From the IMG/VR virus record IMGVR_UViG_2541047794_000002, positions 1 to 51,929 of that record: a DNA stretch of 51,929 bases; one strand, 5' to 3'. Shown here one piece after another: positions 9,151 to 38,206 of this stretch (positions within the stretch are counted from its first letter, which is position 1; each line of letters opens with the position of its first letter). The notes beneath the pieces were generated by a model. The model made no database searches. It was not told the origin of the DNA and was given only the letters and a program-made list of their open reading frames with translations. A program made the translations under genes and the position numbers. The stretch is from a virus. Its lineage: Duplodnaviria; Heunggongvirae; Uroviricota; Caudoviricetes.

Positions 9151-9483
9151 ATGAACCCTTATATTTATCTTGGTGGTGCAATACTTGCACAGGTCATTGG
9201 TACAACCTTAATGAAGTTTTCAGAAGGTTTTACACGGTTATGGCCATCTGTTGGTACAATTATTTGTTATTGTGCATCATTCTGGTTATTAGCTCAGACG
9301 CTGGCTTATATACCTACAGGGATTGCTTATGCTATCTGGTCAGGAGTCGGTATTGTCCTGATTAGCTTACTATCATGGGGATTTTTCGGCCAACGGTTGG
9401 ACCTGCCAGCCATTATAGGCATGATGTTGATTTGTGCCGGTGTGTTGGTTATTAATTTATTGTCACGAAGCACACCACATTAA
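9151..9483 (+). CDS. emrE: Small multidrug resistance (SMR) efflux transporter EmrE
   Basis: From internal Met: MNPYIYLGGAILAQVIGTTLMKFSEGFTRLWPS... is the E. coli EmrE sequence (DLP12 prophage cargo). Confidence 0.9.
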   Translation: MNPYIYLGGAILAQVIGTTLMKFSEGFTRLWPSVGTIICYCASFWLLAQTLAYIPTGIAYAIWSGVGIVLISLLSWGFFGQRLDLPAIIGMMLICAGVLVINLLSRSTPH

Positions 9484-9738: not shown

Positions 9739-11265
9739 ATGAAAAAAGCCATAGCATATATGCGATTTTCATCACCAGGTCAGATGTCTGGTGATTCATT
9801 AAACCGCCAGAGAAGGCTTATTACTGAATGGCTAAAGGTAAATAGTGATTATTACCTTGATACCGTAACGTATGAAGATTTGGGGTTAAGCGCATTCAAT
9901 GGAAAGCATGCACAATCAGGAGCTTTTTCGGAATTTTTAGATGCTATAGAACATGGTTACATATTGCCAGGGACTACATTGTTAGTTGAAAGTCTGGACA
10001 GACTTTCAAGAGAAAAAGTCGGTGAAGCGATTGAGCGTCTGAAATTGATTTTGAATCACGGTATTGATGTTATAACTCTTTGCGATAATACAGTCTATAA
10101 TATAGACTCATTGAATGAGCCATATTCATTAATAAAAGCCATACTTATAGCACAAAGGGCAAATGAAGAAAGCGAGATAAAGTCAAGTCGGGTTAAATTA
10201 TCATGGAAGAAAAAACGGCAGGATGCACTGGAATCAGGCACGATTATGACGGCGTCTTGTCCGAGATGGCTCTCATTGGATGACAAAAGAACAGCTTTTA
10301 TTCCAGACCCCGACAGGGTGAAAACGATTGAGCTAATTTTTAAACTCAGGATGGAAAGGCGATCATTGAATGCAATAGCTAAGTATTTAAATGATCATGC
10401 TGTAAAAAATTTTTCAGGAAAAGAAAGTGCATGGGGGCCTTCTGTAATTGAAAAATTATTAGCGAATAAAGCTCTGATAGGTATATGCGTACCTTCATAT
10501 CGTGCAAGAGGGAAAGGGATAAGTGAAATCGCTGGCTATTATCCCAGAGTCATATCAGATGATTTGTTTTACGCTGTACAGGAAATTCGGTTGGCACCTT
10601 TTGGTATTAGCAATAGTAGCAAGAATCCTATGCTAATAAATCTACTTCGAACAGTTATGAAGTGTGAGGCTTGTGGTAATACCATGATTGTTCATGCGGT
10701 ATCTGGACGTTTGCATGGCTATTATGTTTGTCCGATGAGAAGATTACATCGATGTGACAGGCCATCAATAAAAAGAGATTTGGTTGATTATAATATCATT
10801 AATGAATTGCTTTTTAATTGTAGCAAAATTCAACCAGTTGAAAACAAGAAAGATGCTAATGAAACTTTAGAGTTAAAAATTATTGAGCTTCAGATGAAAA
10901 TTAATAATTTAATCGTTGCATTGTCTGTCGCGCCTGAAGTTACCGCTATAGCAGAGAAAATAAGACTATTAGATAAGGAATTACGAAGGGCTTCGGTATC
11001 ATTAAAAACTTTGAAGAGTAAAGGGGTGAGTTCACTTGGTGATTTTCATGCTATTGATTTAACCAGTAAAAATGGGCGAGAGCTATGTCGTACACTTGCC
11101 TATAAAATATTCGAAAAAATTATAATTAATACAGATAATAAAACCTGTGATATCTATTTTATGAATGGCATTGTTTTTAAACACTATCCTTTAATGAAAG
11201 TAATATCCGCCCAGCAGGCGATAAGCACTCTTAAATATATGGTTGATGGTGAGATTTATTTTTGA
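9739..11265 (+). CDS. ybcK: Large serine recombinase (YbcK-like)
   Basis: 508 aa; N-terminal resolvase motif YMRFSSPGQ with catalytic Ser; AT-rich gene. Confidence 0.8.
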   Translation: MKKAIAYMRFSSPGQMSGDSLNRQRRLITEWLKVNSDYYLDTVTYEDLGLSAFNGKHAQSGAFSEFLDAIEHGYILPGTTLLVESLDRLSREKVGEAIERLKLILNHGIDVITLCDNTVYNIDSLNEPYSLIKAILIAQRANEESEIKSSRVKLSWKKKRQDALESGTIMTASCPRWLSLDDKRTAFIPDPDRVKTIELIFKLRMERRSLNAIAKYLNDHAVKNFSGKESAWGPSVIEKLLANKALIGICVPSYRARGKGISEIAGYYPRVISDDLFYAVQEIRLAPFGISNSSKNPMLINLLRTVMKCEACGNTMIVHAVSGRLHGYYVCPMRRLHRCDRPSIKRDLVDYNIINELLFNCSKIQPVENKKDANETLELKIIELQMKINNLIVALSVAPEVTAIAEKIRLLDKELRRASVSLKTLKSKGVSSLGDFHAIDLTSKNGRELCRTLAYKIFEKIIINTDNKTCDIYFMNGIVFKHYPLMKVISAQQAISTLKYMVDGEIYF

Positions 11266-11589
11266 GTAATAATCACTTTTTCAACCGTGCTATGGTATGA
11301 AAGTAAAGTAACTACTATGATATTAACTATCTTGAACGAAGCGCCCTGAGCTATAGTTTTACTATAGGCACTGCCACTGGATGTTGGCATTCTCGCTCTA
11401 GTAGCTCAACAATACCCAATCACAAAACAATTCACTGATAACAAACTTTGTGCACGTGCTTAGTTATGGCGAACAGGTGATGTTAACCTCCTGCCAGAAT
11501 GCCACTCCACTTCATTAAGTATCTGAGCACCGAGAGGCTGGTCACGCCCCCATTAAAAATAATTTCTTTTGAATCGAGTGAAATAGGTT

Positions 11590-11615
11590 AGCCCGCATAA
11601 GTGCGGGCTGCTTTT
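11590..11615 (+). terminator. Putative rho-independent terminator
   Basis: GCCCGCATAAGTGCGGGC hairpin followed by TGCTTTTT. Confidence 0.5.
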
Positions 11616-12658
11616 TACAGGTCAGCGTTTGTTTTTTGTTGTTGGGTAGCGGTTTTTATGGGGGTTCCCAGGTTTTTAGTAAACCACTCAACAACTCTGT
11701 TTATAATAATTGGCTGATACCATGTATTATCGCCATGCTCAGCCCCTTCTACCAGAACGTACTCAGCGTTATCGCCGTTCTTCTTCAACATCCTGAATAG
11801 TTTGGCGCTTTGCTCAGGTGAAACCAGAGTGTCTTTGCTACCATGCATAATAAGAAATGGGGGGTTTACTCCTTTCATATGTCCGATTGGACTGGCGTTT
11901 AGCGCTTTTTCTTTTGACGCTGTGATGGGGGCTCCCGCAAAATTTCTGAATGCAGGGCCATTGATCATTAAGGCTTCGGTTACGGCAGGAGAGCGATGAA
12001 CCTCCTGCACTGATTCAGGGAACCCCTCGCCAATATTCAACAAGTCAGAAATCCCATAAAGTGTGGCAACTGCCTGAACATCTGAGGATTGCTGAAGAAA
12101 GTCACCTTTATCAAAGGTTTTGTCACCATTTGTAGTTCCCATCATCTGAGCAAGCCATCCACCGGCAGAGTCACCCAGAACTCCGATTCTTTGAGGATCA
12201 ATCCCATAATTGCTGGCATGCTCTCTCAGGTAACGTATTGCAGCTTTTCCATCCTCAACTGGTGCTGGAAATGTATCAGGAATTGTTCTGTATTCTACAG
12301 CGGCCACAACAAAACCAGCTTCTGCCAGAGCCATTCTCATTTCAATAAATTTGTCATGTTCAGAAGACATGAATCCGCCGCCGGGATAATAAATAATGGC
12401 TGGTTTTAAATCATTTGTTCGCGGGACAAGAACTGACATGTGAAGCTGTCTGACAGAACGAGTTCCTTTTATCTGGGAATAAACAACATCACCAATGAGA
12501 TCGACCTGGTTTCTGGTCGGTGAAACACTAATGATATCTGCACCCGGGGTGTAACCAGGAAGATTAGTCTGGACAGGTGTTGCACAACTCCCGACCGACA
12601 TGGCCATTGACATACCATACAATAGTGTTGCAGATGATAATATCTTGTTAATTTTCAT
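11615..12658 (-). CDS. Secreted lipoprotein alpha/beta-hydrolase (esterase/lipase-like)
   Basis: 347 aa; signal peptide with lipobox (MSVGSC); GDSAGG nucleophile-elbow motif and HGSKD motif. Confidence 0.8.
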   Translation of the reverse strand: MKINKILSSATLLYGMSMAMSVGSCATPVQTNLPGYTPGADIISVSPTRNQVDLIGDVVYSQIKGTRSVRQLHMSVLVPRTNDLKPAIIYYPGGGFMSSEHDKFIEMRMALAEAGFVVAAVEYRTIPDTFPAPVEDGKAAIRYLREHASNYGIDPQRIGVLGDSAGGWLAQMMGTTNGDKTFDKGDFLQQSSDVQAVATLYGISDLLNIGEGFPESVQEVHRSPAVTEALMINGPAFRNFAGAPITASKEKALNASPIGHMKGVNPPFLIMHGSKDTLVSPEQSAKLFRMLKKNGDNAEYVLVEGAEHGDNTWYQPIIINRVVEWFTKNLGTPIKTATQQQKTNADL

Positions 12659-13105
12659 GTTTTACATGCCTTGACTTATCGGATGAAATTCTCTTACTGA
12701 ATTTAACGGCAGTTTAATAGCCGTACAACTCGTGGTAGCCAGGGAAATATCCCAGTCGTGGTTAAGGTTGTACTTGACGGCTATTATTTCAACAATGCTT
12801 AAAGTGAGAGCTTAAGGTTATGCGTATGTTTTACAGTCCGAGTAGATTCTGACCAATAGCTTCTTTGTATAATTCTGTCAGAAATAAATCTTGGCTTGCA
12901 TGAAGTTTGAGACCTTATCTTGTTTGATTATGAATAATCAATTCGCCATAATTGTATCACCGGAGCCTGAACAACTCCGGTGACTTCTGCGCTAAACGGG
13001 GACGTTTATGCGCACACACAATCCAAACTCTCTTCTCCCTTCACAGATGCAGAAATGCACCTGCGTTTTTTTGCATCCAGCGTCTGACCTCTGTGGAGGT
13101 GAAGC

Positions 13106-13561
13106 GTGAACCTACCACAAGATGGCATCAAACTGCATCGCGGTAACTTCATCGCTATCGGCCAGCAGATCCAGCCTTATCTGGAGAACGGAAAATGCTT
13201 TCGCATGGTGCTTAAACCGTGGCGTGAGAAACGCAGTCTTTCCCAGAATGCACTCAGCCACATGTGGTACAGCGAAATCAGTGAATACCTCATCAGCAGG
13301 GGGAAATCGTTCGCTACCGCAGCATGGGTAAAAGATGCTCTCAAACACACATACCTCGGTTATGAAACCAAGGACCTGGTTGATGTCGTAACCGGCGAAA
13401 TCACTACTATCCAGTCGTTACGCCATACCTCCGATCTCGATACCGGAGAGATGTATGTCTTCCTGTGTAAGGTTGAAGCCTGGGCGGTGAATATTGGCTG
13501 CCACCTGACTATTCCGCAGAGCTGCGAGTTCCAGCTGCTGCGCGACAAGCAGGAGGCGTAA
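13106..13561 (+). CDS. ybcN: NinB-like recombination protein (YbcN)
   Basis: 151 aa matching DLP12 YbcN. Confidence 0.85.
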
Positions 13562-15167: not shown

Positions 15168-16250
15168 TTAGAACTGATAAACCAGACCTACAGCGACGAT
15201 GTCGTCGGTATCAATACCAGCTGTTTTGGTAAACTTACTATCGTCAATTAAGTTGATTTTGTAATCAACAAAAGTGGACATGTTTTTATTAAAGTAGTAA
15301 GTAGCACCGACATCGACATACTTGACTAAGTCTCGGTCACCATGAACACCAAGGTCTTTACCTTTTGACTGAAGGTAAGCAACAGATGGGCGCAGACCGA
15401 AGTCAAACTGATATTGTGCTACTGCTTCAAAGTTTTGTGCTTTGTTTGCAATATGGTTATTACCAAAAACGGTCATATTCTGAGTTTCAGAATATGTGGT
15501 AGCCAGATAGATATTGTTCGCATCATATTTCAGGCCTGCAGCCCATACTTCCGCATTTTTGCCGGAGGCATTGAATTTGCTCTTACCATAGGCGACCTGA
15601 CCGTCAGTGCGATCTGATTTAGCATAGGTTGCACCCACGCCGAATCCTTCATACTCATAAGTAGTGGAGAAACCGAAACCATCACCATTGGCTTCAGTTA
15701 CGTCAGTGCGGTCATTTTTACCCTGATACTGAGCAGCAAAGTTCAGGCCATCGACCAGACCAAAGAAGTCGTTGTTACGATAAGTTGCAACACCAGTAGT
15801 GCGACCAGTCATGAACACATCTGTTTGGGTCCAGGTATCACCACCGAATTCTGGCAGAACGTCAGTCCACGCACCGATGTCGTATGCTACACCGTAGTTA
15901 CGGCCGTAATCGATTGAGCCGTAATCACCAAATTTCAGGCCTGCAAATGCAAGACGGGTTTTGTCTTTGGAAGAACCTTGAGATTCAGCACGGTTGCCTT
16001 TGAATTCATATTCCCACTGACCGAAACCAGTCAGTTGATCGTTGATTTGGGTTTCACCTTTGAAGCCAAGACGGGCATAAGTAGTATCACCATCATCTGC
16101 ATCATTAGAGGAGAAGTAGTGCTTGGCATTAACTTTCCCGTATAGATCCAGCTTGTTACTGTCTTTATTATAAATTTCAGCTGCCTGAGCAGACATCGCC
16201 ATCAGTACTGATGCAGCTACAGCAGAAATTGCCACTGTTAATTTTTTCAT
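15168..16250 (-). CDS. nmpC: Outer-membrane porin NmpC (OmpC/OmpF family), intact
   Basis: From [23 protein letters not shown] signal peptide; 16-strand porin sequence ending in the C-terminal ...VGLVYQF motif. Confidence 0.9.
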
Positions 16251-18502: not shown

Positions 18503-18754
18503 TTACCGGGATTCGATAAAGGTATTCAAGCCTGACACATTATGCGCTGTATCGTCGCCGTATTCCTGCATTAACCATGACCGTAGCCCGACGGGGAATT
18601 CCTTCTGCGCGAGTGTGCGGGAATAATCAAAAACGATGCACACCGGGTTTTTACCGCGTTTATTATTCGCGGGTTTGTCCCTCATGCTCGCCAGTCCTGT
18701 GCGGGGGTGGAAGAAACAGGACGTGTATTCAGGTCTGTCAGATATTGAATTCAT
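18503..18754 (-). CDS. Hypothetical small protein just upstream of cos
   Basis: 83-aa minus-strand ORF; no recognised domain; could be non-coding. Confidence 0.25.
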   Translation of the reverse strand: MNSISDRPEYTSCFFHPRTGLASMRDKPANNKRGKNPVCIVFDYSRTLAQKEFPVGLRSWLMQEYGDDTAHNVSGLNTFIESR

Positions 18755-18759
18755 TGCGA

Positions 18760-18990
18760 ATAAACCAGAACGCCTGCGGGTCCTTTCCGGCGATCCGACA
18801 GGTTACGGGGCGGCGACCTCGCGGGTTTTCGCTATTTATGAAAATTTTCCGGTTTAAGGCGTTTCCGTTCTTCTTCGCCGTAACTTAATGTTTTTATTTA
18901 AAACACTCCCTGAAAAGAAAGGAAACGACAGGTGCTGAAAACGGGCTTTTTGGCCTCTGTCGTTTCCTTTCTCTGTTTTTGTCCGTGGAA
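18760..18990. other. Prophage cos site (cosQ-cosN-cosB); cosN GGGCGGCGACCT at 18809..18820
   Basis: Near-identical to the lambda genome left end (GGGCGGCGACCTCGCGGGTTTTCGCTATTTATGAAAATTTTCCGG...), about 188 bp upstream of nu1. Confidence 0.85.
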
Positions 18991-18996
18991 TGAACA

Positions 18997-19516
18997 ATGG
19001 AAGTCAACAAAAAGCAGCTGGCTGACATTTTCGGCGCGAGTATCCGTACTATTCAGAACTGGCAGGAGCAGGGAATGCCCGTTCTGCGAGGCGGTGGGAA
19101 GGGTAATGAGGTGCTTTATGACTCTGCCGACGTCATAAAATGGTATGCCGAAAGGGATGCTGAAATTGAGAACGAAAAGCTGCGCCGGGAGGTTGAAGAA
19201 CTGCGACAGGCCAGCGAGACAGATCTCCAGCCAGGGACTATTGAGTACGAACGCCATCGACTTACGCGTGCGCAGGCCGACGCACAGGAGCTGAAAAATG
19301 CCAGAGACTCCGCTGAAGTGGTGGAAACCGCATTCTGTACTTTCGTGCTGTCGCGGATCGCAGGTGAAATTGCCAGTATTCTCGACGGGATCCCCCTGTC
19401 GGTGCAGCGGCGTTTTCCGGAACTGGAAAACCGACATGTTGATTTCCTGAAACGGGATATCATCAAAGCCATGAACAAAGCAGCCGCGCTGGATGAACTG
19501 ATACCGGGGTTGCTGA

Positions 19517-19542
<26 letters not shown>
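18997..19542 (+). CDS. nu1: Terminase small subunit Nu1
   Basis: 181 aa, near-identical to lambda Nu1. Confidence 0.95.
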
Positions 19543-23223
<3,681 letters not shown>

Positions 23224-23243
<20 letters not shown>

Positions 23244-24540
23244 TCTCCCGCATATTGCCAGCATGGCCTTTAATGAGCCGCTGATGCTTGAACCCGCCTA
23301 TGCGCGGGTTTTCTTTTGTGCGCTTGCAGGCCAGCTTGGGATCAGCCGCCTGACGGATGCGGTGTCCGGCGACAGCCTGACTGCCCAGGAGGCACTCGCG
23401 ACGCTGGCATTATCCGGTGATGATGACGGACCACGACAGGCCCGCAGTTATCAGGTCATGAACGGCATCGCCGTGCTGCCGGTGTCCGGCACGCTGGTCA
23501 GCCGGACGCGGGCGCTGCAGCCGTACTCGGGGATGACCGGTTACAACGGCATTATCGCCCGTCTGCAACAGGCTGCCAGCGACCCGATGGTGGACGGCAT
23601 TCTGCTCGATATGGACACGCCAGGCGGAATGGTGGCGGGGGCATTTGACTGCGCTGACATCATCGCCCGTGTGCGTGACATAAAACCGGTATGGGCGCTG
23701 GCCAACGACATGAACTGCAGTGCAGGTCAGCTGCTTGCCAGTGCCGCCTCCCGGCGTCTGGTCACGCAGACCGCCCGGACAGGCTCCATCGGCGTCATGA
23801 TGGCTCACAGTAATTACGGTGCTGCGCTGGAGAAACAGGGCGTGGAAATCACGCTGATTTACAGCGGCAGCCATAAGGTGGATGGCAACCCCTACAGCCA
23901 TCTTCCGGATGACGTCCGGGAGACACTGCAGTCCCGGATGGATGCAACCCGCCGGATGTTTGCGCAGAAGGTGTCGGCATATACCGGCCTGTCCGTGCAG
24001 GCTGTGCTGGATACCGAGGCTGCAGTGTACAGTGGTCAGGAGGCCATTGATGCCGGACTGGCTGATGAACTTGTTAACAGCACCGATGCGATCACCGTCA
24101 TGCGTGATGCACTGGATGCACGTAAATCCCGTCTCTCAGGAGGGCGAATGACCAAAGAGACTCAATCAACAACTGTTTCAGCCACTGCCTCGCAGGCTGA
24201 CGTTACTGACGTGGTGCCAGCGACGGAGGGCGACGCCAGCGCGGCGCAACCGGACGTGAACGTGCAGATCACCGCAGCGGTTGCGGCAGAAAACAGCCGC
24301 ATTATGGGGATCCTCAACTGTGAGGAGGCTCACGGACGCGAAGAACAGGCGCGCGTTCTGGCAGAACCCCCCGGAATGACCGTGGAAACGGCCCGCCGCA
24401 TTCTGGCCGCAGCACCACAGAGTGCACAGGCGCGCAGTGATACTGCGCTGGATCGTCTGATGCAGGGGGCTCCGGCACCGCTGGCTGCAGGTAACCTGGC
24501 ATCTGATGCCGTTAACGATTTGCTGAACACACCAGTGTAA
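23224..24540 (+). CDS. C: Head protease / minor capsid protein C
   Basis: GTG start as in lambda: (M)TAELRNLPHIASMAFNEPL...; ClpP-like S49 protease domain. Confidence 0.9.
23938..24540 (+). CDS. nu3: Scaffold protein Nu3 (in-frame internal start within C)
   Basis: In-frame ATG (MDATRRMFAQK...) at the position equivalent to the lambda Nu3 start; inferred from lambda organisation. Confidence 0.55.
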   Translation: MDATRRMFAQKVSAYTGLSVQAVLDTEAAVYSGQEAIDAGLADELVNSTDAITVMRDALDARKSRLSGGRMTKETQSTTVSATASQADVTDVVPATEGDASAAQPDVNVQITAAVAAENSRIMGILNCEEAHGREEQARVLAEPPGMTVETARRILAAAPQSAQARSDTALDRLMQGAPAPLAAGNLASDAVNDLLNTPV

Positions 24541-24549
24541 GGGATGTTT

Positions 24550-33560: not shown

Positions 33561-33902
33561 ATGGCTACTCATTACACTGAACTCATGGCTGGCACTGAAG
33601 CACTGGTTACTACGTTGGGGATATTTTCAGCTAATAAAGGGGTAATTCCTGCATTTACGCCACTGATGCAAGAAGATGCAACTGGTGCACTGGTGGTATG
33701 GGATGGAACGAGCGCAGGCAAAGCTGTTTATGTTTCCGCTGTACAAATCGATACAGCGACAAAAACGCAGGCTCAGGTTTATAAAACCGGCGTCTTAAAT
33801 GTTGATGCTCTGAACTGGCCTGAGTCTGTAACACAACTATCAGCAAAAGTTGCTGCGTTTGTTGGCTCAGGTATTTCTGTTCAGCCGCTGGCACGTGTGT
33901 GA
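33561..33902 (+). CDS. Decoration protein homolog (lambda gpD-like)
   Basis: 113 aa, similar length and motifs to gpD (LVVWDGTSAGKAV...YKTGVLNVDALNWPE), directly after the capsid gene as D-E are paired in lambda. Confidence 0.7.
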   Translation: MATHYTELMAGTEALVTTLGIFSANKGVIPAFTPLMQEDATGALVVWDGTSAGKAVYVSAVQIDTATKTQAQVYKTGVLNVDALNWPESVTQLSAKVAAFVGSGISVQPLARV

Positions 33903-33911
33903 GGTACGAGA

Positions 33912-34256
33912 ATGATTGAAAGAGATAGTCAGCTACGAGAGCTATTAGATATCGATGACAAAATGCGCTTAAGCGAGCGTCTTGTCGATATGAATCAGGT
34001 GATGGAACTTACAACCCTGAGTCGCCGTACACTGCTAAACCTTGAGGCTCGTGGAGAGTTCCCTGAGCGTGTGCAGGTTACGGAAGGGCGTAAGGCTTGG
34101 TATTTAAGCGAGGTTGTTGAGTGGATTAACAATATCCCGCGAGCATCAAACTATTGCCTCGTACCCACACCGGAAAAACCTGATGCGGCGTTATGCCTCA
34201 AGATTGAACGCGCCAGGCGTAATGCCCTGAAAGGGCGCAATAAGTTGATTGGTTGA
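33912..34256 (+). CDS. Second AlpA/excisionase-family HTH protein
   Basis: 114 aa; TTLSRRTLLNLEARGEFPERVQVTEGRKAWYLSEVVEWI fits the AlpA/Xis-type HTH. Confidence 0.6.
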   Translation: MIERDSQLRELLDIDDKMRLSERLVDMNQVMELTTLSRRTLLNLEARGEFPERVQVTEGRKAWYLSEVVEWINNIPRASNYCLVPTPEKPDAALCLKIERARRNALKGRNKLIG

Positions 34257-34261
34257 TGAAA

Positions 34262-34345
34262 TTAGGGCCCGCTCTGGCTGGCGGGTCCTTTCCGGCAATC
34301 CGGCAGACTACGGGGCGGAAGGCGCGCGGGTTTTCGCTATTTATG
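34262..34345. other. Element cos site, lambda-like (cosQ-cosN-cosB); cosN-equivalent GGGCGGAAGGCG at about 34313..34324
   Basis: GGGTCCTTTCCGGCAATCCGGCAGACTACGGGGCGGAAGGCGCGCGGGTTTTCGCTATTTATGA closely parallels the prophage cos at 18780..18850, with differences inside cosN. Confidence 0.75.
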
Positions 34346-34472
34346 AGCATTTTAAGGGGACTGGTGGTGGTTTTGTTGTTCGCTATATCTGTATGAATAA
34401 TAAGAGAAAAATACAATCAATACACCAACCTGAAACAGTAATTAAGTTGTGGTATCAATGAAATTACACCTG

Positions 34473-35000
34473 ATGAACAAAAAAAACATGGCAAAAAGTT
34501 GCCGTGTAAGCGCCACTGCGTTCGATAAGTGGGGAGTGATTCCCGTCGAGCGTAAGGGCCGTGAGGCGTTCTATGATGTTGCCAGTGTAATAGATAATCG
34601 GGTTAACAATGCAATCAGCCAGATTACAAACGAAACGGGCGATATTGATGACGATGAACTTTTACGCGTCAGGATCAGATTACTGACAGCACAGGCAGAG
34701 GCGCAGGAGCTTAAAAACGAGCGCGAACGCGGCGACGTTATTGATACAGAGTTTTGTATGTATGTTCTTTCCAAACTGGCGAGTCAGATTTCATCTATCA
34801 TGGACAGCCTGCCGCTTACCATGCAAAGGCGCTTCCCACAGATGACTCCGGCTATGCTGGATGGACTTAAAAAGGAAGTGGCTAAAGCCTGTAATGCCAG
34901 TGCCGGCGTTGCTGACAACCTCCCACAGATACTGGCTGATTATCTGATGGAAAGTACAGGAAACGTACCGGATAAGTTGCAGCTGAATAAGGATAAGTAA
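34473..35000 (+). CDS. Terminase small subunit homolog (Nu1 family) of the element
   Basis: From MNKKNMAKSCRVS...; central/C-terminal region aligns with Nu1 (ELKNERERGDVIDTEFCMYVLSKLASQISSIMDSLPLTMQRRFPQM vs ELKNARDSAEVVETAFCTFVLSRIAGEIASILDGIPLSVQRRFPEL). Confidence 0.8.
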   Translation: MNKKNMAKSCRVSATAFDKWGVIPVERKGREAFYDVASVIDNRVNNAISQITNETGDIDDDELLRVRIRLLTAQAEAQELKNERERGDVIDTEFCMYVLSKLASQISSIMDSLPLTMQRRFPQMTPAMLDGLKKEVAKACNASAGVADNLPQILADYLMESTGNVPDKLQLNKDK

Positions 35001-35011
35001 CGTAGTACGCT

Positions 35012-35287
35012 ATGACTGAATCCGAACTACTGAAAGTAATCTGCCATGCTGGTGGAGTCAGCCACCAGCATGACGAACAGGCCACGCAGCCGGGCAGTGT
35101 CACCGCTGAAAATTACGCTCGTGTGGTTGCTGAGGTTATGTGGCGTGACGGTATAGAACTGAACGGACAGGATTGCTTAGTCATCCGCACCAAAGTGCTG
35201 GCTATACTGGCAGCTAGGCGGAGGCAGGGACAACGCCAGAACGTTGCATCGTACCAGTGGAAGAAGCCTGACAGACTGCGGCGATAA
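35012..35287 (+). CDS. Hypothetical protein
   Basis: 91-aa ORF downstream of terS. Confidence 0.35.
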   Translation: MTESELLKVICHAGGVSHQHDEQATQPGSVTAENYARVVAEVMWRDGIELNGQDCLVIRTKVLAILAARRRQGQRQNVASYQWKKPDRLRR

Positions 35288-35689
35288 CTCTTTGATTTTC
35301 TCGACGGCCCCAAAATGGGCCTTACCATAGCCAGCTAATAAATGAGCAAGCCTCAAAAGTGAGGTTTGTGGCCGTTTGGCCTATTCATATGCTAACTCGT
35401 TGATATTCCTGACGACGCAAATTTACGCCTTGTGGCTGGTAGTCGAATTGCAAATTTGCAACTCGACTATGAAACTACCTGTAGTTTGGGTAGTAAAAGC
35501 AACACACTGATTTTGGGGCTTCTTCGCGATACCTAATATTATGGTATCGGTGGAAGAGATATCGTTTCTCATAGGTTAGCACCGAGGGCGGAGTTCCGCC
35601 CTCATCGAAAAATTGCTTACGAGTCGTCAAAATAAATTAATCGACTGAGTATAATGATTAACTAATTGCTCGTGTTACTTCATTATACG

Positions 35690-36451
35690 TTATTTCCCAT
35701 CTTTAAGGTTTAACCAAGTGTTAATTAAAAAAAGAGCCATTGAGCCTGATAAATTTACTGCAAGTTCGGCATGCCTTGGGGATGGCTTAATTGATGAGCT
35801 GTTCGTTCCATGTGCATCACCGAGTTTATTACGAAGAGTACCTAACCCATTTACAACTGCAGAACAACCGCCGAGAATTTGTTTGAAGATATTTTCAGTA
35901 TGTTGGTCGGCAGATAGGTTAAGTTCTTTTGAAAGAGTTTTATAAAGCTCTGACATTTCAATATTTTTATTATTATACTGAATGCCCATATCATCAAGAA
36001 TGTGTTTGCAAACTGTTTCAAGAAGTGTTCTTGCGGAGGTTATCGCACCATCCGGATCTGTATGGCGCCGTTCAAGTGCTTTTATCCAAACGGCGTGGAC
36101 TCCATCCTCGTTAAACTTTCTTAATACATCAGATATGTCTTCATCCGCTGGAGCTTTATTTTTCCCTTCTAGATAGTCCAGCATCGGCTGAAATGCCTTA
36201 TAAATCAAATCTCTCCGGGGGGCATACTTTTCAGTCTTTTTTATAAATCCCCAAAATTCTTTTAGTGAGCGATTAGTTCTCACAAACTCTGGTAATAGCT
36301 GATGTAAAGGAGGATTTTGTAAGAAATATGTTCTTAGAAGCAAATAATCATTATTAGCTTCATCCTGGGCTCCTGTAGCTCTTGCAATTAGTATGTTTTG
36401 AAGCGCTACTGCGCGCTCTAGGTCATTTTGAAGGGTATCTATAATATTCAT
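35690..36451 (-). CDS. Predicted abortive-infection-type protein with C-terminal HEPN-like R-x6-H motif (Abi_C/AbiJ-like); candidate anti-phage cargo
   Basis: 253 aa, AT-rich, opposite strand, at the right end of the element. C-terminal LRNKLGDAHG contains an R-x6-H motif as in HEPN RNase domains. Confidence 0.65.
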   Translation of the reverse strand: MNIIDTLQNDLERAVALQNILIARATGAQDEANNDYLLLRTYFLQNPPLHQLLPEFVRTNRSLKEFWGFIKKTEKYAPRRDLIYKAFQPMLDYLEGKNKAPADEDISDVLRKFNEDGVHAVWIKALERRHTDPDGAITSARTLLETVCKHILDDMGIQYNNKNIEMSELYKTLSKELNLSADQHTENIFKQILGGCSAVVNGLGTLRNKLGDAHGTNSSSIKPSPRHAELAVNLSGSMALFLINTWLNLKDGK

Positions 36452-36610
36452 AACAAATCTTTATTCACTTCATTTGTGGGTTGATAATTGAATGGTTTGT
36501 ACATTGATTTCTGTGTATTGCAGTGTGTATTGCAACATAGCCATTCAGGTAGAGATTATGCTCTATTTTTCCTCTTATATCATTCACATACTTACACCAT
36601 TGACTCATGT

Positions 36611-36620
36611 AGCCGAAGCA
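36611..36620. repeat. Right copy of the 10-bp direct repeat AGCCGAAGCA (att core, right junction)
   Basis: Identical to 25173..25182; followed by E sequence resuming in frame (HEVNPQMTL...). Confidence 0.75.
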
Positions 36621-37401
36621 TGAGGTGAATCCGCAGATGACCCTGCGTCGCCTGCCGGATGAAGATCCGCAGAATCTGGCGGACCCGGCTTACCGCCGCC
36701 GTCGCATCATCATGCAGAACATGCGTGACGAAGAGCTGGCCATTGCCCAGGTCGAAGAGATGCAGGCAGTTTCTGCCGTGCTTAAGGGCAAATACACCAT
36801 GACCGGTGAAGCCTTTGATCCGGTTGAGGTGGATATGGGGCGCAGTGCGGCAAACAACATCACACAGTCCGGTGGCACGGAGTGGAGCAAGCGCGACAAG
36901 TCCACGTATGACCCGACCGACGATATCGAAGCCTACGCGCTGAACGCCAGCGGCGTGGTGAATATCATCGTGTTTGATCCGAAAGGATGGGCGCTGTTCC
37001 GTTCCTTCAAGGCCGTCAAGGATAAGCTGGATACCCGTCGCGGCTCTCATTCCGAGCTGGAGACAGCGGTAAAAGACCTGGGCAAAGCGGTGTCTTATAA
37101 GGGAATGTATGGCGATGTGGCCATCGTCGTGTATTCCGGACAGTACGTGGAAAACGGCGTCAAAAAGAACTTCCTGCCGGACAACACGGTGGTGCTGGGG
37201 AACACTCAGGCACGCGGTCTGCGTACCTATGGCTGTATTCAGGATGCGGACGCACAGCGCGAAGGCATTAACGCCTCTGCCCGTTACCCGAAAAACTGGG
37301 TGACTACCGGCGATCCGGCGCGTGAGTTCACCATGATTCAGTCAGCACCGCTGATGCTGCTGGCTGACCCTGATGAATTCGTGTCCGTACAACTGGCGTA
37401 A
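36613..37401 (+). pseudogene. E: Major capsid protein E, 3' fragment (no start codon; separated from the 5' fragment by the element)
   Basis: PKHEVNPQMTLRRLPDEDPQNLADPAYRRRRIIMQNMRDEELAIAQ... to the end matches lambda gpE residues about 80-341; an in-frame TAG lies immediately upstream. Confidence 0.85.
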
Positions 37402-37442
37402 TCATGGCCCTTCGGGGCCATTTTCTCTCTGTGGAGGAGTCC

Positions 37443-37841
37443 ATGACGAAAGATGAACTGATTGCCCGTCTCCGCTCGCTGGGTGAGCAACTGAACCGTG
37501 ATGTCAGCCTGACGGGGACGAAAGAAGAACTGGCGCTCCGTGTGGCAGAGCTGGAAGAGGAGCTTGATGACACGGATGACACTGCCGGTCAGGACACCCC
37601 TCTCAGCCCGGAAAATGTGCTGACCGGGCATGAAAATGAGGTGGTATCAGCGCAGCCGGATACCGTGATTCAGGATACGGCTGAACTGGTCACGGTCGTG
37701 GCACTGGTGACGCTGCATACTGATGCACTTCACGCCACGAGGGATAAACCTGTGGCATTTGTGCTGCCGGGAACGGCGTTTCGTGTCTCTGCCGGTGTGG
37801 CAGCCGAAATGACAGAACGTGGCCTGGCCAGAATGCAATAA
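37443..37841 (+). CDS. FI: Head assembly protein FI
   Basis: From MTKDELIARLRSLGEQLN...; matches lambda gpFI. Confidence 0.85.
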   Translation: MTKDELIARLRSLGEQLNRDVSLTGTKEELALRVAELEEELDDTDDTAGQDTPLSPENVLTGHENEVVSAQPDTVIQDTAELVTVVALVTLHTDALHATRDKPVAFVLPGTAFRVSAGVAAEMTERGLARMQ

Positions 37842-37852
37842 CGGGAGGCGCT

Positions 37853-38206
37853 GTGGCTGATTTCGATAACCTGTTCGATGCTGCCATTGCCCGCGCTGAT
37901 GAAACGATACGCGGGTATATGGGAACGTCAGCCACCATGACATCCGGTGAGCAGTCCGGTGCTGTGATACGTGGTGTTTTTGATGACCCTGAAAATATCA
38001 GCTATGCCGGACAGGGTGTGCGCGTTGAAGGCTCCAGCCCGTCCCTGTTTGTCCGGACTGATGATGTGCGGCAGCTGCGGCGTGGAGACACGCTGACCAT
38101 CGGTGAGGAAAACTTCTGGATAGACCGGGTTTCGCCGGATGATGGCGGAAGCTGTCATCTCTGGCTTGGACGGGGCGTACCGCCTGCCGTTAACCGTCGT
38201 CGCTGA
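37853..38206 (+). CDS. FII: Head-tail joining protein FII
   Basis: 117 aa matching lambda gpFII. Confidence 0.9.
   Translation: MADFDNLFDAAIARADETIRGYMGTSATMTSGEQSGAVIRGVFDDPENISYAGQGVRVEGSSPSLFVRTDDVRQLRRGDTLTIGEENFWIDRVSPDDGGSCHLWLGRGVPPAVNRRR

Follow-up and report, generated by a model that had tools for sequence, protein, structure and literature searches.

The window analysed here, the whole 51,929-nt stretch of the IMG/VR virus record IMGVR_UViG_2541047794_000002, is a lambda-like prophage of E. coli, of the Bievrevirus/DLP12 type, and its minus strand carries the esterase gene that is the subject of this work (Table 1). The open reading frame begins with ATG and encodes 347 amino acids with no interruption, so that the gene is intact and not a fragment; start and length agree with the RefSeq call in a genome of 99.9% identity (WP_000700204.1, "alpha/beta hydrolase"), and since the exact protein was found on 110 public contigs the open reading frame is not a chance one. 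The gene is convergent with ybcK, which encodes a 508-residue serine recombinase (9739-11265, plus strand), and divergent from ninB/ybcN (13106-13561, plus strand), which is followed by ninE, ybcO, rusA and quuD. A first-pass annotation, made from the letters alone, had described a secreted lipoprotein esterase carried as prophage cargo on the opposite strand, with the gene of the serine recombinase on one side and the nin region on the other; both the position and the strand were correct, and the results below support this interpretation as essentially right. The gene has already been annotated, as "alpha/beta hydrolase" in RefSeq, as "esterase" in PHROG (phrog_3341, E = 3.8e-129) and as "esterase" in phage records, and a search of the literature on the protein accessions or on an E. 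coli prophage esterase found no specific study of its function.

Table 1. Features of the esterase cassette and of the neighbouring cargo genes; positions are those of the window.
Feature	Position	Strand	Remarks
Esterase coding sequence	11615..12658	-	347 codons plus stop; BD-FAE/Abhydrolase_3 family serine hydrolase
Predicted signal peptide, residues 1-24	12587..12658	-	n-region with Lys2 and Lys5; h-region ILSSATLLYGMSMAMSV
Predicted lipobox, Val22-Gly23-Ser24-Cys25	12584..12595	-	Cys25 codon TGT at 12584-12586; residue +2 is Ala
Oxyanion-hole motif, Pro92-Gly-Gly-Gly95 (YPGGGF)	12374..12385	-	Pro92-Phe96 invariant in 18 homologues
Catalytic nucleophile, Ser164 codon	12167..12169	-	in G-D-S-A-G-G; aligns with Ser128 of BD-FAE (6TKX/6XYC)
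Catalytic acid, Asp276 codon	11831..11833	-	in HGSKD; aligns with the Asp237 motif of BD-FAE
Catalytic His308 codon	11735..11737	-	in GAEHGD; aligns with the His269 motif of BD-FAE
Exchangeable cassette, 1648 bp	11275..12922		BLAST against K-12: homology stops at 11274 and resumes at 12923
GC-rich hairpin	11589..11610		4 nt past the stop; bidirectional terminator-like, better T-run on the plus strand
Upstream non-coding region, 264 bp	12659..12922	-	cassette-specific; AAGG 10 nt before the ATG
emrE	9151-9483	+	neighbouring cargo
nmpC/ompC-type porin gene, uninterrupted	15168-16250	-	neighbouring cargo

The whole protein matched the Pfam family BD-FAE (PF20434) with 154 bits against a cut-off of 26.8 (E = 5.5e-45) and Abhydrolase_3 (PF07859) with 81.2 bits against a cut-off of 25, which bears out the assignment as an alpha/beta-hydrolase esterase. 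The best solved structure was 6NKF, the rumen metagenome esterase/lipase Lip_vut4 (E = 1.4e-37), and further solved relatives were 6MLY, a GH43-CE protein of Bacteroides eggerthii, and BD-FAE itself (6TKX/6XYC, E about 1e-21). An AlphaFold model built from 18 close homologues (predicted local distance difference test, pLDDT, 64.7; predicted template modelling score, pTM, 0.71) served for confirmation of the fold only, and with it Foldseek returned the same esterase structures in the same order. Alignment with BD-FAE, whose catalytic residues Ser128, Asp237 and His269 are numbered here as in its paper, gave a complete catalytic triad, Ser164-Asp276-His308; all three residues are invariant across 18 homologues of 63-79% identity and are also retained in 44 phage-clade loci. 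The nucleophile motif of the hormone-sensitive-lipase-type esterases (family IV; CAZy carbohydrate esterase family 10, CE10-like) is present as G162-D-S-A-G-G167, and the oxyanion motif, Y-P-G-G-G-F, has invariant glycines but carries Pro at the place of the His of the family IV motif H-G-G-G. We consider the protein almost certainly an active serine esterase. Readings as a chloramphenicol hydrolase, a pectin acetylesterase of the PaeX type, a tannase or a lactonase were dropped because no NCBIfam model reached its cut-off. At the other end of the protein, following a variable linker of ~15 residues, the last residue is Leu in 108 of 120 homologues, usually within x-(A/S/G)-N-L; the terminal tetrapeptides included NANL (46), DANL (16) and DASL (8), and that of the window is NADL (codons 11618-11629).

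The N-terminus, MKINKILSSATLLYGMSMAMSVGS-C25-ATPVQ, fits a lipobox pattern of the PROSITE PS51257 type, with an uncharged h-region and the lipobox V-G-S-Cys25, and the lipoprotein-type signal peptide named in the first-pass annotation therefore stands as a pattern. The regular expression that we used allows no charged residue in the six positions before [LIVMFWSTAG]2-[LIVMFYSTAGCQ]-[AGS]-C and further demands that the Cys lies at positions 15-35 and that Lys or Arg occurs among the first seven residues; it was applied to 120 homologues, and the sequence of the window was fitted by eye (GMSMAM-SV-G-S-C25). Cys25 is the sole cysteine of the protein and is kept in all 45 phage-clade loci (at least 95% identity) and in all eight full-length cluster members that were read. 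Taken together, the protein is very probably a lipoprotein, as judged from its sequence. The Lol system sorts lipoproteins by the residue at +2, and since this residue is here Ala and not Asp, anchoring in the outer membrane is predicted. The word "secreted" in the first-pass annotation holds for predicted export and lipid anchoring, whereas release from the cell is unsupported, and it should best be read as exported and, by prediction, lipid-anchored.

By the regular expression, the lipobox is missing in 117 of the 120 best homologues, and signal peptides of the ordinary AxA type are found in the relatives from Dickeya, Pantoea, Klebsiella and Rhizobium. It is common only to the nearest clade, namely P0002, P0003, P0005 and a plasmid copy, and appears to be a recent feature. 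Tyr replaces the lipobox Cys in P0001, a rare allele of the E. coli cluster, and in P0004, a separate 75%-identical relative; in P0001, Tyr25 corresponds to a change of TGT to TAT at the codon that encodes Cys25 in the window. Such a change would give an ordinary signal cleavable after V-G-S, so that a single base would decide whether the enzyme is anchored or soluble. An atypical lipobox had been considered from the cluster representative P0001 with its Tyr25, and this reading was rejected once further alleles had been read, as these have Cys25 as a rule.

The nearest relatives outside phages are 74-80% identical and have the lipobox; their genes directly follow a phenolic acid decarboxylase gene (PF05870, E = 2e-84), at a distance of 12-34 bp, and a LysR regulator is encoded divergently. 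An enzyme that releases an acid from its ester and an enzyme that decarboxylates the acid, encoded side by side, make a coherent two-step pathway, and it is on this ground that hydroxycinnamate esters are proposed as substrates. In this Enterobacterales operon (pSCU-105-1 WP_169063298/WP_169063299; loci L005-L008) the esterase is alike in length and has a lipobox-type N-terminus (STGC/SAGC), but it follows the decarboxylase gene with LysR divergent, whereas in the phage the gene is an orphan and the 264 bp upstream of it are unrelated. The DNA similarity to the operon copies begins 10 bp before the ATG. One such LysR-decarboxylase-esterase module is found on the conjugative IncF plasmid pSCU-105-1 (NZ_CP051739.1; L144 4959-8851) of an E. 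coli from a healthy human; its esterase is 76% identical to the phage protein, with the lipobox present, and an IS3 element interrupts the LysR gene of the module. Other decarboxylase-esterase modules have insertion sequence (IS) elements on their flanks. The pairing occurs again in Erwinia tracheiphila, in a Selenomonas genome (44% identity) and in the metagenome locus L101. The decarboxylase gene of Erwinia tracheiphila (L012 5103-5575) matches as two overlapping pieces in different frames, which suggests a frameshifted pseudogene.

A second line of evidence comes from Dickeya. The phage protein is 63% and 47% identical to two D. aquatica 174/2 proteins, P0077 (SLM61953.1) and P0136 (SLM61950.1), both deposited as "Ferulate esterase". 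FaeD and FaeT are the two feruloyl esterases of that genus (CE10), and both are reportedly active. The Dickeya proteins are alike to the phage esterase over almost the full length, with the GDSAGG, GGG and HGD motifs and an N-terminal export signal, but they have AxA signals for signal peptidase I without a lipobox. Their genes are chromosomal and stand beside LysR regulators, whereas the phage cassette has no regulator gene, and FaeD leaves the cell through the Out type II secretion system, in contrast to the predicted lipid anchor of the phage esterase.

The gene lies within a cassette that is exchangeable between prophages. The comparison with the DLP12 region of E. coli K-12, which the first-pass annotation had proposed, found no esterase in DLP12, where a ybcL-ybcM segment of 1845 bp occupies the same slot between ybcK and ninB; the description as prophage cargo is in agreement with this. 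The guanine-plus-cytosine (GC) fraction is 0.42-0.475 in the cassette, 0.30-0.40 in ybcK and 0.50-0.52 in the nin genes. The downstream neighbour varies with the prophage and may be ybcK, as here, emrE directly, or an inverse-autotransporter gene, and the link to ninB is constant. The upstream region is 98-100% conserved and always linked to the esterase gene and ninB across 44 phage-clade loci, and it should contain a promoter and a ribosome-binding site. At the other side, only 64 bp of the spacer between ybcK and the esterase gene (11275-11614) accompany the gene in other contexts; they lie beside the stop and contain, in every context read, the hairpin of Table 1, which was found by a terminator scan and has an RNA folding energy of -14.8 kcal/mol (z = -2.6). 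From the genetic point of view, the gene occupies a slot whose alternative cargo was known before and is itself typical lambda-like cargo. It resembles the envelope cargo of lambda-like phages (Bor, Lom, the NmpC porin and YbcL), which is dispensable, lies between conserved modules, often on the opposite strand, and encodes exported or lipid-anchored products, but these are structural or binding proteins whereas the esterase is an enzyme with a complete catalytic site.

Among 5426 complete E. coli genomes, 668 (12%) carry the esterase segment and 3206 the ybcL-ybcM segment. Eight deposited lambda-like phage genomes carry the gene, those named being 4A7, 4C10, D2, 1W, 3W, PhiR47_2 and Perceval, and phages 4A7 and 4C10 are inducible and reported to form plaques. 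IMG/VR contributed 43 viral contigs with full-length copies, all at least 97% identical, and one truncated copy; no intermediate relatives were found in viruses among the IMG/VR contigs, and because the viral copies are this similar and without intermediates, the distribution points to a single capture of the gene by phage. The ratio of nonsynonymous to synonymous polymorphism (pN/pS) was 0.18 across 25 distinct alleles, the corresponding divergence ratio (dN/dS) was 0.06-0.10 against chromosomal relatives, and 43 of 45 copies were intact, the remaining two having an internal stop and a truncation. The gene is therefore under purifying selection, and these three results disfavour the view of a decaying passenger.

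In light of these data, we propose that the gene is a "moron", an accessory gene unneeded for phage growth in a variable slot of the early-right region, and that it encodes a predicted lipid-anchored serine esterase for hydroxycinnamoyl or other short-acyl esters. As a whole this statement, which is derived from sequence comparison, is favoured by a small measure; the part of it that describes expressed cargo of benefit to the lysogen appears somewhat firmer, and fairly probable. For lipidation, sorting, expression in the lysogen, substrate and benefit to the host we infer the following course. The esterase would be exported by the Sec system, Cys25 would be lipidated and the signal peptide then cleaved by signal peptidase II, and the Lol pathway would deliver the protein to the outer membrane, where a flexible linker of ~20 residues would hold its catalytic domain within the envelope. 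There its most likely substrates would be esters small enough to enter through the porins; plant hydroxycinnamoyl esters, among them feruloyl or p-coumaroyl sugars and chlorogenic acid, are the best candidates, with acetyl and other short-acyl esters as alternatives. The gene would most likely have been captured from the Enterobacterales decarboxylase-esterase operon, of which a copy is found on the E. coli IncF plasmid, and would now spread by itself with inducible phages.

Several observations weigh against this proposal, in each of its parts. Concerning the anchor, the lipobox is known from a pattern match alone, the h-region is only moderately hydrophobic (mean Kyte-Doolittle value 1.4), and the rare Tyr25 alleles indicate that the lipid anchor is dispensable at least sometimes. 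Concerning the enzyme, the top structural relative, 6NKF, bears a lipase label, the confidence of the AlphaFold model is only moderate as judged from its pLDDT, and no NCBIfam equivalog or subfamily model reached its cut-off, so that the protein receives no curated functional name; the best subfamily match, GTSAG_HSLs, scored 54.9 bits against a cut-off of 380, and LipQ, LipP1 and Aes remained far below theirs. Concerning the pathway, the window contains no decarboxylase remnant, tblastn returning noise only. Metagenome relatives were gathered by a scan with alignment and the neighbourhoods of 60 loci below 90% identity were profiled; a decarboxylase lay within 3 kb in only one of these 60, and the other neighbours included AraC (12/58), HxlR (8/58) and an outer-membrane efflux protein (13/59). 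Because these distant loci show no consistent catabolic context, the decarboxylase link holds for no more than the nearest clade and a few lineages beyond it.

The comparison with BD-FAE, which combines feruloyl and acetyl xylan esterase activity and is encoded in a polysaccharide utilization locus of Bacteroidetes (Hameleers et al. 2021), bears on the substrate. The two proteins share the Pfam family, the fold and the aligned Ser-Asp-His residues, but only about 25% identity; the nucleophile motif is GFSSGG in BD-FAE and GDSAGG in the phage esterase, where Asp163 precedes Ser164, and the phage esterase differs further in an extra N-terminal segment of ~45 residues, the predicted lipid anchor and the prophage context. 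None of the narrower features of BD-FAE, Phe127, the lid-loop disulfide Cys186-Cys242 and the polysaccharide-utilization-locus context, is found here. These differences, too, count against the proposal, as the ferulate-contacting Phe127 corresponds to Asp163 and the ferulate-contacting residues are not conserved, and the disulfide is impossible in a protein with one cysteine. Hydroxycinnamate esters as the main substrate, a prediction from relatives and gene order, come close to an even chance without quite reaching it. A short-chain acyl or acetyl esterase of general specificity, without particular ties to phenolic acids, acting in the periplasm for example on acetylated oligosaccharides, which it would deacetylate, or on other small esters, would agree with the dual acetyl and feruloyl activity of the family prototype, with the acetyl esterase, PaeX and acetylxylan esterase models among the weak sub-threshold NCBIfam matches, and with the missing decarboxylase neighbour of most family members. 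However, it leaves aside that the nearest relatives lie specifically in a decarboxylase-esterase operon and that a protein of 63% identity was deposited as a ferulate esterase, and we consider this alternative unlikely, though of appreciable weight.

The expression of the gene must also be considered. A scan of the upstream region on the minus strand found no sigma-70 promoter match of at least 9/12, and with relaxed criteria only one site, of 8/12, was found, 124 nt upstream of the esterase gene; a search of 11000-13400 with Rfam at E <= 1 returned nothing. The missing promoter match and the loss of the native operon promoter and LysR regulator, which the phage copy left behind, are two further points against the proposal, and it is conservation only that suggests expression from the repressed prophage of the lysogen. 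The lack of a consensus promoter, together with the absence of the native regulator and of the upstream decarboxylase gene, would also fit a silent passenger, an orphan gene minus its operon promoter that is carried along by its linkage to ninB and is useless to both lysogen and phage. Against this stand the purifying selection described above, the triad and lipobox of the 43 intact copies, and the occurrence of the gene among deposited phages and in 12% of the complete genomes, and a silent passenger is in our view improbable.

Many genes of lysogenic conversion change the serotype or block superinfection, and an esterase that deacylates or deacetylates a surface glycan (O-antigen, enterobacterial common antigen, capsule or lipid A) could do either. 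The predicted envelope location, the status as phage cargo and the envelope-directed neighbours, a porin here and an intimin-like adhesin in other prophages, are consistent with such remodelling of the envelope. However, the relatives of 60-76% identity come from plant-associated and gut bacteria, where they are ordinary genes of chromosomes or plasmids and have catabolic or regulatory genes beside them, the cassette has no partner acetyltransferase or glycosyltransferase, and the phage glycan deacetylases so far known have other folds (SGNH); a role in remodelling is therefore very improbable. An accessory lysis enzyme that cuts an outer-membrane or lipoprotein linkage late in infection, like LysB of mycobacteriophages, would account for a phage-encoded esterase with an envelope address, but this is the least credible of the alternatives, given that the gene lies ~4 kb from the lysis cassette, on the strand opposite to the early and late units and upstream of the Q antiterminator gene, that the lysis cassette is already complete with holin, endolysin and spanin genes, and that DLP12-type phages without the esterase gene keep the same lysis genes.

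Hydrolysis of chlorogenic acid has been reported for some human gut E. coli isolates, and the phage esterase may be the basis of such strain-variable hydrolysis of chlorogenic acid and cinnamoyl esters in some gut E. coli, although we regard this as doubtful. If it were so, temperate Bievrevirus-type phages would shuttle an activity that processes dietary polyphenols among E. coli strains, and a TGT/TAT change at codon 25 would toggle between a cell-anchored and a soluble periplasmic form. Should the prediction of the substrate be correct, about one in eight E. coli strains would be able to split hydroxycinnamate esters at the envelope, chlorogenic acid and feruloylated fibre fragments among them, temperate phages would be tied to the metabolism of dietary phenolics in the gut, and a trait known to date only as a phenotype would gain a simple genetic marker. 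Otherwise, we would have a further case of cargo exchange at the ybcK-ninB slot of prophages of the DLP12 type.

The first-pass annotation had also counted emrE and an intact nmpC porin gene with the esterase as several host-facing accessory genes of the prophage. Both are present and the porin gene is uninterrupted, but the emrE copy of the window encodes Gln14 (CAG, 9190-9192) in place of Glu, the sole case among 26 copies read, K-12 having Glu. Glu14 of EmrE is the essential membrane-embedded carboxylate that couples transport to protons, and the E14Q allele of the window is probably inactive and transport-dead.

In other prophages the neighbourhood of the esterase gene differs. At L041 (7081-10989, minus strand) and in similar loci among L034-L058 it is convergent with a gene for a 1302-residue inverse autotransporter of the intimin/invasin type, whose N-terminal domains match IatC, intimin and SinH, all below their cut-offs. 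In the window, the spacer between ybcK and the esterase gene measures 340 bp, and a part of it, ~11406-11543, resembles unrelated coliphages at 78-84%, among them Turner and PhiR26_1, in the latter near a Rha gene. At the right boundary of the cassette lies a promoter-like site on the plus strand (12924-12952; TTGATT, 17 nt, CATAAT) that points towards ylcH/ninB and might restore transcription of the nin genes beyond the inserted cassette on the opposite strand. The closest genome is that of strain CU42ET-1 (L004), where the prophage adjoins icd, followed by sitABCD; the early and tail regions of the window match it at 96-99%, the head and packaging region (18739-38077) is without a match, and the prophage is a mosaic relative of the CU42ET-1 prophage.

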